Below, piece by piece: positions 2,695-47,841 of a stretch of 64,000 nucleotides of DNA. The stretch covers positions 20,708,001 to 20,772,000 of the forward strand of contig OX597835.1 of the NCBI GenBank assembly GCA_951406725.2, read 5' to 3'. The position numbers and the translations under genes are program-made. The notes below the pieces were generated by a model. That model was not told the origin of the DNA, ran no database searches, and worked only from the letters and a program-made list of their open reading frames with translations. Position 1 is the stretch's first letter. Each line of letters opens with the position of its first letter. The stretch is from Octopus vulgaris. Its lineage: Eukaryota.

Positions 2695-3375
2695 GAAGTG
2701 TTCCACTTTATCTGATCAATAATACAGCTTGCTCATAGATTAAACTTGCAAGTGGCTGAGCACTCCACCGACACGGGTACCATTAACGTAATTCTCTGGG
2801 AGATTCGCCGTAACAGAGAGTGTGACAACGATGGCCCTATTGAGATACAGGCACTATTAAGTTTTGCCAGATAAGTGAAATGGAGCAAATCGAAATAAAG
2901 TATCTTGCTTAAAGTCACAACGCCCCCACTGGGAATGGAACTCGCGCTCTTTCGATCGCGAAACGAATACCCTAACCACTATGACACTCGCTTTCATATA
3001 AACACACACATGCACGCACACACAGACACATAGACACAAACACATGCACATAAACGATTAGAGGTTATGATAGTCACAATAATAATGATGGTGTCATCCA
3101 AGGGAATACTGGTTGAATACTCAATATTTTGGGAGAGTTAATTTCCTTAAAATAATGGTGCATTTATAAAAACCTATAGTTTATAATCATATAAAAGGCG
3201 AGAAAGAAAATGGAAATTAAGAAGTTAATAATTGTTTGTTATTAACAACAAATCAATCGTCATCCCTTATATTTGTTTCAATTATCACTCAGTGAATTAA
3301 TTAAATATTAAGTTCGTATGCCCTGAGCATAACAATCTTCAGAGTGAAAAATATTCCTTTGGATGTTTTATATGG

Positions 3376-3757
3376 GGAAGCACTCCGTCGGTTACGACGA
3401 CGAGGGTTCCGGTTGAACCGAATCAACGGAACAGCCTGCTCATGAAATTAACGTGTAAGTGGCTGAGCACTCCACAGACACGTGTAGCCTTAACGTAGTT
3501 CTCGGGGATATTCAGCGTGACACAGAGAGTGACAAGGCCGGCCCTTTGAAATACAGGTACAACAGAAACAGGAAGTAAGAGTGAGAGAAAGTTGTGGTGA
3601 AAGAGTACAGCAGGGATCACCACCATCCCCTGCCGGAGCCTCGTGGAGCTATAGGTGTTTTCGCTCAATAAACACTCACAACGCCCGGTCTGGGAGTCGA
3701 AACCGCGATCTTATGACCGCGAGCCCACTGCCCTAACCACTGGGCCATTGCGCTTCC
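3376..3757 (-). mobile_element. SINE family C
   Basis: Full-length homolog of 2300-2694. TSD GGATGTTTTATAT at 3361-3373 and 3763-3775. Confidence 0.9.
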
Positions 3758-3840
3758 ACACAGGATGTTTTATATATGTGCTTATGGATTCATTATAGCA
3801 GACTCATATGTGTGTGCGTGTGTGTATTCATATAGCAGAC

Positions 3841-3896
<56 letters not shown>

Positions 3897-4070
3897 AAGT
3901 TCGAAAACTCCACTAGAATGGGCGAAAGCGCTAATATATATGATATATGATATATGATATAAAAAAAAACATGTAATATACAAATAAATATCTGTAAATA
4001 TAAAACCATCCGAATTTCTGAGTACATCATTTCTTCTAATATAAAATACCGGTACATCATCTCCAAACCT

Positions 4071-4128
<58 letters not shown>

Positions 4129-4293
4129 AAAGATAAATGCGATACAATAACATTAATTATAATCGCCGGTGTACCAGTAGACGCCATATATTGTTCATAT
4201 ATCATTACATTCAAGGCGAAGAGTGCACTAGATACACAATAGCTGGATAAATTTAGTGAGATGAAAATTAAAAACTTTTACAAACTTAGCTTT

Positions 4294-4366
4294 TCTTATA
4301 CTGCAGTTTCGCCAAATTCAGTAATAAAAATAATATTTATTTACTCAGGCTGGCTCTTCAGTAAGA
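4294..4366 (-). ncRNA. Type I hammerhead ribozyme (copy 1)
   Basis: Minus strand: UCUUA-CUGAAGA-GCCA...UGGC-GAAA-CUGCAG-UA-UAAGA. Canonical core, 5-bp stem I, G10.1-C11.1 stem II, palindromic stem III, GUA cleavage triplet. Confidence 0.85.
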
Positions 4367-4697
4367 TTCCTGTTAATGATGGGAAGACCATATTAATAGA
4401 CCCATGTGCGTCTATTGAAATGCTCTTTCTAAACTATTCAAAACACTGCGCAGACTCAGAACAAACCCGACAAAATAGGGGATTGTGGTATATCGTCTAA
4501 CGGTCAGAAATTTATCGAGGGAATATGTAAACAGAGATTAATGCGATACAATAAAATTAATTATAATCGCTGGTGTACCAGTACACGCCATATATTGTTC
4601 ATATATCATTACATTCAAGGCGAAGAGTGCACTAGATACACAATAACTGGATAAATTTAGTGAGATGAAAATTAAAAACTTTTACAAACTTAGCTTT

Positions 4698-4770
4698 TCT
4701 TATACTGCAGTTTCGCCAAATTCAGTAATAAAAATAATATTTATTTACTCAGGCTGGCTCTTCAGTAAGA
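4698..4770 (-). ncRNA. Type I hammerhead ribozyme (copy 2)
   Basis: Same motif as 4294-4366, 404 bp away. Confidence 0.85.
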
Positions 4771-4791
4771 TTCCTGTTAATGATGGGAAGA

Positions 4792-4836
<45 letters not shown>

Positions 4837-4935
4837 GGTCCCGGGTTCAGTCGGGGTTAACCACAGTAAATAAGGTACTCAATACATAGCATTTGAATGA
4901 AACAGTTCTAGTCCTGTAGAAGCTCCTTCTATAAA

Positions 4936-4983
<48 letters not shown>

Positions 4984-5037
4984 GAAATATTAAAATAACT
5001 AAGTCTCTCTAAAAGAGAACAGCGGCAGCGTTCCCGG

Positions 5038-5283
5038 AAAATAATAGTTATCGCCATACTAATATGGCATTCTTATAAAAATAAGAAAAAAAGCTGTCCG
5101 CTTATTAGCTCCATGAGGCCATCGCCTTAAGTTAGCTATTTGATACACAAACTGTTCGAAGGTTATATGGATACAGTTTGTGTATCAAATAGCTAACTTA
5201 AGGCGATGGCCTCATGGAGCTAATAAGCGGGCAGCTTTTTTCTTATTTTTATAAGAATGCCATATTAGTATGGCGATAACTAT

Positions 5284-5289
<6 letters not shown>
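5038..5289. repeat. Foldback inverted repeat (~118-bp arms, 17-nt loop) ending at (TA)n
   Basis: 5038-5155 is the near-perfect reverse complement of 5173-5289. Confidence 0.92.
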
Positions 5290-5353
<64 letters not shown>

Positions 5354-5669
5354 AAGTTCGAATTCAGTTCCACTCCATGGTACATTCGGTTGACCAAGCG
5401 TGACGAAATCCATCATATATGTATATAATTACATGTGTGTGAAATTGTACTTAGGTGTATTGCCTGCAACCACATGAAAACCGGTCTTGGTGTGTTTACA
5501 TCCCTGCACTTTAGCGGTTCGATACAAAGAGATAAGTACAGGCTCAAAAGATTAAGTAATGGAGGTCAATTCATTAGACTGAAATCCTCAGGGCGGTGTC
5601 CCACCATGACCACCGTGTATTGACTGGAGTAAGTAAAATATAATGCACAGATATATGTGTGTGTATTTT

Positions 5670-6041
5670 ACTAGCTTCAGTCATTCGACTGTTGCCATGC
5701 TGGAGCACAATCTTGAAGAGCTTAGTCAAACATATCGGCCCAAGAACTTATGGCTTTCAAGTCTAGTTCATATTCTGTCGATTTCTTTTGCCGAAACACA
5801 CTAAGTTACGGGACATAAACACACCAGCACAGGTTGTCAAGAGGTGATGGGGGACACACATATATATATATATACATATATGTACGACATTCTTCTTTCA
5901 GTTTTCGTCTTCCAAATCCCCTCACAAGGCCTTGGTCAGTACGAGGCTACACAGAAAGACATTTGCCCAAGCTGCAATGCTCTGGGACTGAACGCAAAAC
6001 CACATCATTGAGGAGCGATTTTCTTACCACATTGCTACGCC
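5670..6041 (-). mobile_element. Diverged SINE family B copy (an inverted 3' fragment lies at ~5410-5635)
   Basis: Homologous to 26487-26925 (CAGTCATT...GCCATGCTGGAGCAC, CAAATCC.CTCACAAGGC). Confidence 0.7.
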
Positions 6042-47641: not shown

Positions 47642-47744
47642 GGAGTAAACACATAAATGTGAAACAAGGTGGAAAAAAAGAGTACTCAAATACCAGTGGT
47701 AGAGTAATATGCTTTATTTAAAGCAGCAGAAAATTCAACAAAAC

Positions 47745-47782
47745 CTGTTACTCTGAGTTTCACGTTTCCGTTCGTCGGACAG
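47745..47782 (-). ncRNA. Minimal hammerhead (U4>C) in element 47640-47785
   Basis: CUGU-CCGACGA-ACG-GAAA-CGU-GAAA-CUC-A-GAG-UA-ACAG; GNRA-capped stem II. Confidence 0.65.
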
Positions 47783-47784
47783 TT

Positions 47785-47841
<57 letters not shown>

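Follow-up and report, generated by a model that had tools for sequence, protein, structure and literature searches.

Metazoan non-LTR retrozymes have been described in coral, mussel and axolotl, where a circular RNA was demonstrated (PMC7229834; here, as throughout, statements about published work refer to the excerpted sections of each source), whereas the octopus family analysed below is known from genomic copies and its circle is predicted. A life cycle joining such circles to the enzyme of a Penelope element (PLE) has already been proposed (PMC4209133 and PMC7229834), with both the mover of the retrozymes and the use of the circle as a template still presented as hypotheses (PMC7229834). 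For these elements, the excerpted sections of the latter paper mention neither a fixed 3' end nor a TA target, name no driver, and portray a highly self-paired monomer, which the octopus unit is not. Among vertebrate retrozymes (bioRxiv 10.64898/2026.07.22.740005), most families of which have at most seven units, 24 of the 57 Xenopus families match Repbase transposable elements, nearly all of them PLEs, and the mechanisms are said to 'remain to be elucidated'. The octopus family shares with them a non-autonomous relation to PLEs, but the vertebrate link runs through pLTR homology and the octopus link only through a 20-nt junction motif; the excerpted sections of that study name no mollusc among the groups listed and hold no analysis of insertion ends. 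Among the literature matches listed (Repbase, Dfam and some supplements lying outside the search), no cephalopod retrozyme was found, and neither those matches nor the sections of PMC10886601 seen (some supplements again lying outside the search) contain an end-mapping of retrozyme insertions.

The PLEs themselves provide the second term of comparison. Their insertions display a fixed 3' end, 5' truncation, partial tandems, inversions and a microsatellite target (PMC8557442), and Hydra and Naiad PLEs with a preference for TA are listed for Octopus in the supplement to that study. The octopus retrozyme resembles Hydra-clade PLEs (PMC8557442) in its (TA)n target, fixed 3' end, 5' truncation, partial tandems and occasional 5' inversion (seen at L079), as well as in having a hammerhead upstream of the 3' end and in sharing a junction motif with two such families of the octopus genome; it differs from them in having no ORF, an unrelated hammerhead sequence, and a distance from cut to 3' end of 175 nt as against their ~30-35 nt. 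Chlamys elements such as MRC1 are likewise non-coding PLE passengers found as multicopy head-to-tail insertions, but non-autonomous Chlamys elements, unlike the retrozyme, share 3' sequence with autonomous partners, and most Chlamys elements are without canonical hammerheads (PMC8557442). In the anole Poseidon element PAc, reverse transcription starts inside the RNA, and fixed genomic 3' ends map to and thereby mark these internal start sites; that element is autonomous, however, and its start site is without homology to the target, whereas ACAUAU in the retrozyme can pair with (TA)n (PMC11167929).

The window (G000:C22:20708001-20772000, the whole stretch of 64,000 nucleotides of DNA that was analysed) carries one copy of the octopus element (Table 1). 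The preferred reading, to which a probability of roughly two in three is assigned, is that this copy is a 1.67-unit retrozyme insertion for which a Hydra-clade Penelope protein would have nicked (TA)n, primed internally on the predicted 404-nt circle and copied past the ligated cut.

Table 1. Features of the window copy and its target. Unit positions m1-m404 are numbered from the base after the predicted cut (m1 = 4702).
Feature	Position	Strand	Remarks
Whole insertion	4124..4797	-	674 nt = 1.67 units; edges uncertain by ~5 nt (AT microhomology with target)
Cut-to-cut monomer, 404 nt, predicted circular RNA	4299..4702	-	m1 = 4702, m404 = 4299; putative circle
Upstream type I hammerhead	4698..4770	-	predicted cut between 4703 and 4702; helix III palindrome 4704-4711; stem covariation across copies
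Downstream type I hammerhead, identical to upstream one	4294..4366	-	predicted cut between 4299 and 4298; helix III palindrome 4300-4307
Internal junction motif ACATATT-N5-GATAAATT (m175-194)	4509..4528	-	putative RT start site; common to two Hydra-clade Penelope families
Terminal partial unit m1-175	4124..4298	-	end at 4124 = fixed 3' end of retrozyme family
5'-truncated partial unit m310-404	4703..4797	-	5' end varies between copies
(TA)n target at insertion 3' end	4076..4125
(TA)n target at insertion 5' end	4794..4833

The window copy is composed of m310-404, m1-404 and m1-175. Its direct repeats are two 280-nt copies, AT edges included, with 97% identity and a spacing of 404, and their core is 270 nt long (4124-4393 and 4528-4797); the 95 nt preceding each cut are 100% identical between the two hammerheads, while the two 175-nt overlaps differ at six positions and both carry the private allele m106C. 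A preliminary description had reported two identical minus-strand hammerheads 404 nt apart within direct repeats of ~270 bp, no coding capacity, and (TA)n on both flanks; all of this is confirmed, the longest stop-to-stop frame wholly within the element being 85 aa and the TA runs lying at the positions given in Table 1. No tRNA was found in 3000-6000 of the window. The surrounding region, 3841-5339, is a nest of at least five short insertions with (TA)n runs between them, among which the pieces at 3962-4075 and 4834-4935, the latter with palindromic arms, are repeats that stand beside TA runs elsewhere too.

On the minus strand the window hammerhead reads UCUUA-CUGAAGA-GCCA...UGGC-GAAA-CUGCAG-UA, followed after the predicted cut by UAAGA, and comprises stem I (UCUUA/UAAGA), the core CUGAAGA, stem II (GCCA/UGGC), GAAA, and helix III ACUGCAGU, with the cut predicted after GUA. 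It thus has the CUGANGA and GAAA core, the NUH cut triplet, stems I-III and the open end in stem I that mark the type I hammerhead. The earlier wording 'fully canonical' holds for the core, but helix III consists of only 2 bp capped by a palindromic loop, and helix II is long, its stem-loop region spanning 44 nt. A 2-bp helix III with a palindromic loop characterises the dimer-dependent type of hammerhead (PMC4209133), and the palindromic helices of two copies are here predicted to be able to pair as an 8-bp dimeric helix of -13.1 kcal/mol, in agreement with the dimeric fold that had been suggested for the two motifs. A simple hammerhead descriptor run over the 64 kb returned these two motifs and one unrelated motif only. 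Rfam gave no hammerhead model match to the window element at either the gathering score or E<=10, which may be explained by the long stem II; low-score Rfam miRNA matches were rejected as (TA)n artefacts.

Conservation of the fold was assessed across 131 hammerhead copies, in which the counts for core and helix III are partly fixed by the search pattern. Stem I pairs are kept in 128-130 copies, with U-A replaced by C-G in three. In stem II, 129-131 copies keep pairs 2-4, among which C-G, U-A and A-U replace one another, and 16 copies have A-C or A-A as a mismatched first pair. N17 is A in 77, C in 53, U in one and G in none. Over nine distinct rows, 98.3% of cells are paired and two pairs are changed on both sides, a covariation score that one of 500 shuffles reached, although the rows are related and the figure is hence no true probability. 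The maintenance of the fold by compensatory changes indicates that the hammerhead is under selection. Against this stand the mismatches in the first pair of stem II, the dependence of the core counts on the search pattern, and the predicted folding, in which the ground state of the circle does not contain the active hammerhead (stem I pair probabilities 0.03-0.44, helix III ~0). The monomer is no more structured than its shuffles (z -0.93; 17 of 100 fold equally well), so that it lacks the high self-pairing which PMC7229834, in the sections cited, gives as a descriptive trait outside its definition of retrozymes. In the subfamilies of L225, L227, L229 and L239, the core is CCGAUGA and stem II begins with A-C or A-A; a weakened hammerhead may suffice, because these subfamilies nonetheless formed arrays of up to 4-5 units.

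Searches of the 2.8-Gb assembly demonstrated that the element belongs to a dispersed family. A DNA search with the unit yielded at least 53 matches from 40 of 631 candidates, and exact patterns matched 64 times for the window-subfamily hammerhead (reversed control 0), 226 times for the 3'-end stretch, internal repeats included (control 0), and 232 times for the internal junction (control 8). Clustering of 61 full units at 94% gave nine clusters, one of which is a damaged copy, leaving eight subfamilies with medoids of 397-425 nt and 69-96% identity; unit lengths in that range break any reading frame across units. Two or more complete hammerheads are present in 20 of 62 loci. Its tandem unit of 404 nt (within the range of 150-450 bp), the type I hammerhead that every unit carries, and its dispersal without either coding capacity or LTR organisation make the element, on genomic criteria, a non-LTR retrozyme, and its sequences define a new retrozyme lineage of at least eight subfamilies, with clear insertion signatures and a candidate driver. 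ORF and tblastn scans of 35, 51 and 30 loci (sets that overlap in part) found no retrozyme copy joined to a Penelope ORF (RT + GIY-YIG) in the same unit; where a PLE ORF does lie near a retrozyme copy, it belongs to a different insertion of the same TA nest, with a TA run in between or in the opposite orientation. The preliminary description had set its candidate retrozyme against a single-copy locus formed by simple tandem duplication, and against homologs that always form the terminus of a coding Penelope. Hundreds of dispersed matches argue against the first, and no examined copy ends a coding Penelope or is joined to a Penelope ORF, so that the retrozyme reading is supported.

The ends of the insertions were mapped at 62 loci, which include two near-duplicate pairs. 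The 3' end falls at m174-180 (174-180 nt past the cut) in 60 of the 62, with a TA run directly after it, likewise in 60; TA stands at the 5' side in 50, the 5' ends are spread over the whole unit, and insertion lengths range from 0.64 to 5.04 units. The circularly permuted homologs that had been anticipated are accordingly dispersed and variable at the 5' end, but because the 3' end is fixed they are permuted at one end only. A second sample comprised 69 insertions on C1-C8, taken from the first 100 3'-end matches listed and chosen by 3'-end pattern alone (L126, with a damaged 3' end, was left out, and the duplicate L180 was counted once); many of these are stubs of 25-60 nt, and two complete hammerheads are found in only 10. 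A fixed 3' end, 5' truncation, partial tandems and a microsatellite target together make up the geometry of a non-autonomous PLE passenger, while target-site duplications are illegible inside (TA)n. One insertion (L080, G000:C6 near 73874000) contains an internal jump from m335 to m96.

The candidate driver was recognised in a tandem PLE beside a retrozyme stub (L069, 4828-9001). The protein encoded there and at L107 has RWK, DKT and a CxCX5C linker, is without CCHH, and ends in a GIY-YIG-like region (weak match, E 0.011); together with a canonical hammerhead, a (TA)n target and a length of <3 kb, these traits agree with those by which the Hydra clade is defined (PMC8557442), and homology to Hydra-1_Obim is visible by eye. 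At least 144 matches to this family (L069, L093-L122) were found, all scored ones at 99-100% amino acid identity and many with intact 717-aa frames, and the 30 top copies, a biased sample, differ by 0.08% on average; judged from this near-identity, the family is a very young burst. Its hammerhead has a U4C core (CCGAAGA), and its copies end in (TA)n ~30-35 nt past that hammerhead, at ACATATTGTATA(GATA), where the sequence continues internally as GATAAATTTCC.

The retrozyme junction, ACATATTCTCTCGATAAATTTC, is identical to this Hydra junction at 19 of 22 positions, a likeness equalled by 3 of 2000 shuffles in a post hoc comparison. A second, older Hydra family (L225; C-terminus 77% identical in amino acids), turned to only later, has ACATATT-N8-GATAAATT at its own 3'-end site, and the motif ACATATT..GATAAATT occurs in 22 of 22 internal junctions of the 717-aa family and in five of eight of the second. 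In the window unit it stands at exactly m175, and 1 of 20000 shuffles of the unit contains it; recognition of the motif was post hoc, and the spacer range allowed for was chosen with all three families already in view. Across the retrozyme family it is present in 56 of 61 units, a count that is partly circular (the units were cut with a similar pattern), and exactly in ~53 of 63 junctions defined by BLAST. Beyond these 20-22 nt, the similarity of the retrozyme unit to the non-coding region of the Hydra element is not significant: 77 of 500 shuffles reach its score.

It is unlikely, though it must be taken seriously, that the retrozyme is moved by some other PLE with a TA target, whether a further Hydra family, Neptune or Naiad, and that the motif match to the two Hydra families is AT-rich convergence, in which case the retrozyme is possibly a deletion derivative of an unfound pLTR; this alternative concerns the driver only, and it overlaps the alternatives for the template discussed below. 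Thousands of PLE candidates (17833; 15251) lie outside the scored set, TA targeting is common to Hydra and Naiad (PMC8557442), and Hydra copies mostly end at or just before GATAAA, ~8-11 nt downstream of the retrozyme end, an offset of ~10 nt. The motif was, moreover, not found in a second TA-targeted retrozyme family that lies next door in the window; it follows both that the motif is no mere by-product of TA targeting and that TA targeting alone names no driver. In favour of the Hydra protein, each of the three families has the motif at its 3'-end site, the pattern matches listed are all retrozyme arrays, and 40 Hydra-like loci yielded nothing credibly homologous to the unit, only low-complexity or hairpin matches of 21-73 nt. 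No autonomous parent of the retrozyme was found in the loci scanned (35, 51, 30 and the 40 Hydra-like). The motif probably does not extend to the whole clade, since GATAAATT(T)CC was not found in Hydra-1_Obim as printed in the supplement to PMC8557442 (where a line break might conceal it). A further Hydra-like family (L254, 1987-4404) combines an open frame of 806 aa with a 3' UTR that is long and AT-rich; it is similar at a T-rich site, and was set aside because its TA run is internal to the 3' UTR and its true end was not found. Also discarded was a helix, AAUUUAUC/GAUAAAUU, that the alignment fold places beside the priming site, with a probability of only 0.00-0.54 across nine units.

The nature of the template can be examined through the arrays. 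In subfamily A (42 loci), divergence is 0.37% (64/17440) within arrays and 2.0% between them; in subfamily B (16 loci), the values are 1.9% and 3.2%. Private alleles in A are present in all covering units in nine cases, in a subset in one and as singletons in 31, which fit later mutation, and the corresponding numbers for B are 10, one and 52; at L017, for example, m149C and m325T are found in five of five units. A systematic difference between terminal and internal units was rejected, there being neither a fixed nor a majority difference in A or B. Of the 69 insertions, 34 extend as far as the cut (L090, L198 and L165 are not among these, though BLAST shows that they pass it); a single one ends there, to within 3 nt, against 55 passages across it. 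Of 143 cut junctions, 140 keep the exact register, with no indel seen; the remaining three comprise two substitutions and a TA insertion. Mixing of subfamilies occurs at none of 31 multi-cut loci. This set includes a 1749-nt duplication, which is no array, and two C arrays in which the sequence upstream of each cut scores as B, the hammerhead being common to B and C. The homogeneity of the arrays and the read-through of the cut would most simply result from repeated copying of one covalently closed monomer, and they support the earlier suggestion that the ~1.7-unit structure arose by more than one round on a circular template. At L006 (units 1 and 2) and L021 (units 1 and 3), one allele is present in two of four units; in the 3.8-unit array at L021 (G000:C3:159898940-159900471), m29A alternates as a dimeric template would give, and other private changes do not.

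An improbable alternative to the circle keeps the element and the kind of enzyme but has a linear template, namely an uncleaved read-through transcript of a tandem array, with unequal crossing-over or gene conversion growing and homogenising the arrays. Already homogeneous arrays could indeed also yield homogeneous arrays, and published observations lend this scheme some substance: anole Poseidon inserts in vitro without hammerhead cleavage, unprocessed RNA being the main substrate (PMC11167929), and Li et al. 2026 favour local amplification by unequal crossover and found that only one of nine dimers tested cleaved. Looped contigs, described below, fit tandem read-through equally well. Copying with 5' truncation, however, only shortens arrays; two complete hammerheads are so rare among insertions (10 of 69) that the lineage needs a way to regain units, and yet arrays of 4-5 units exist. 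Stepwise crossing-over also predicts alleles confined to a subset of units, whereas A and B together give 19 private alleles in all units and two in a subset; L070, at only 1.29 units, has two private alleles in both of its overlapping parts; and the hammerhead fold has been kept with compensatory changes.

Less probable again is a linear cleaved monomer as the template, with the reverse transcriptase, once at its 5' end, jumping to a 3' end, be it that of this monomer or of a different one. End-to-end jumping is a property of R2-type reverse transcriptases, and a few 5' ends at or just after the cut (L166, L199, L201) are what some linear templates predict, but the single stop at the cut against 55 crossings, and the lack of any indel or added base at the 143 junctions, speak against it, as does the failure of any array to switch subfamily, though the subfamilies need not be co-expressed. 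A local tandem duplication or satellite with a chance hammerhead-like motif, to which only the lack of an Rfam hammerhead match would lend support, is refuted by the dispersal (226 and 232 matches, controls 0 and 8) and end geometry of the family, with its fixed 3' end, and by the covariation of its stems.

The preferred reading, of a predicted circle copied by a Hydra protein, would entail the following cycle. Copies with two hammerheads would be transcribed by read-through, and the RNA would cleave itself, probably via the dimeric helix III; a host ligase would close the monomer to a circle, as reported for other retrozymes. The Hydra protein would then bind at or 3' of ACAUAUU..GAUAAAUU, the nicked (TA)n end would prime on ACAUAU at m175-180, and copying would run for 25 to ~2000 nt until truncation. 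Only insertions of at least ~650 nt carry two complete hammerheads and could restart the cycle, and the window copy is among them.

Contigs of runs that may be RNA fit this cycle and tandem transcription alike. No run recorded as RNA contains the queried stretch; 14 runs guessed to be RNA contain 0.27-0.42 of its words, and contigs were examined for three of these and for one large run of unrecorded kind. These contigs join the end of the unit to its start, in a manner in which circle and tandem read-through look alike: run X9 gives a single self-overlapping 433-nt contig with no branch, run X10 has a small TA branch at the 3'-end site, across which it is otherwise nearly flat, run X1 is fragmented, and run X16 also has the end-to-start joint. 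The private allele of the window copy at 4597 is absent from all four runs, and there is thus no sign that this copy itself is transcribed.

A more specific history can be offered, tentatively and with the odds rather against it: an RNA circle independent of any pLTR may have acquired a ~20-nt mimic of the Hydra Penelope RT start, and rolling target-primed copying may have continued through at least eight successive subfamilies. If so, the arrays would directly record in the genome how a retrotransposon enzyme circled a single RNA as many as five times, and a short, transferable motif would be all that any circle needs to become a substrate for integration at TA targets. What the family contributes is a putative priming site that has been mapped, signatures in the arrays by which circular and linear templates can be told apart, and, within one and the same genome, a candidate enzyme that is young and intact. 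With an enzyme thus named, the life cycle of animal retrozymes, so far unproven, could be tested in the in vitro PLE assay already available (PMC11167929).

Two further sequences in the window were also noticed. The unrelated third motif returned by the descriptor lies on the minus strand at ~47650-47790 and reads CCGACGA...GAAACTCAGAGTA, followed by ~100 nt; the same end is found at L264, and the motif is likely a PLE terminal fragment. Positions 4981-5289 hold a piece, inverted at its 5' side, of the second, unrelated non-coding tandem family, which has a unit of ~362 nt and a fixed end of its own in (TA)n; the piece is without a ribozyme. Full units of that family (L300-L308) carry a type I hammerhead with the U3-A8 core UUGA[A/C]AA (18 matches), a natural compensatory variant of the hammerhead core, with stems GCUACA/UGUAGC and GGGG/CCCC, helix III ACGCGU and a cut predicted after GUC.
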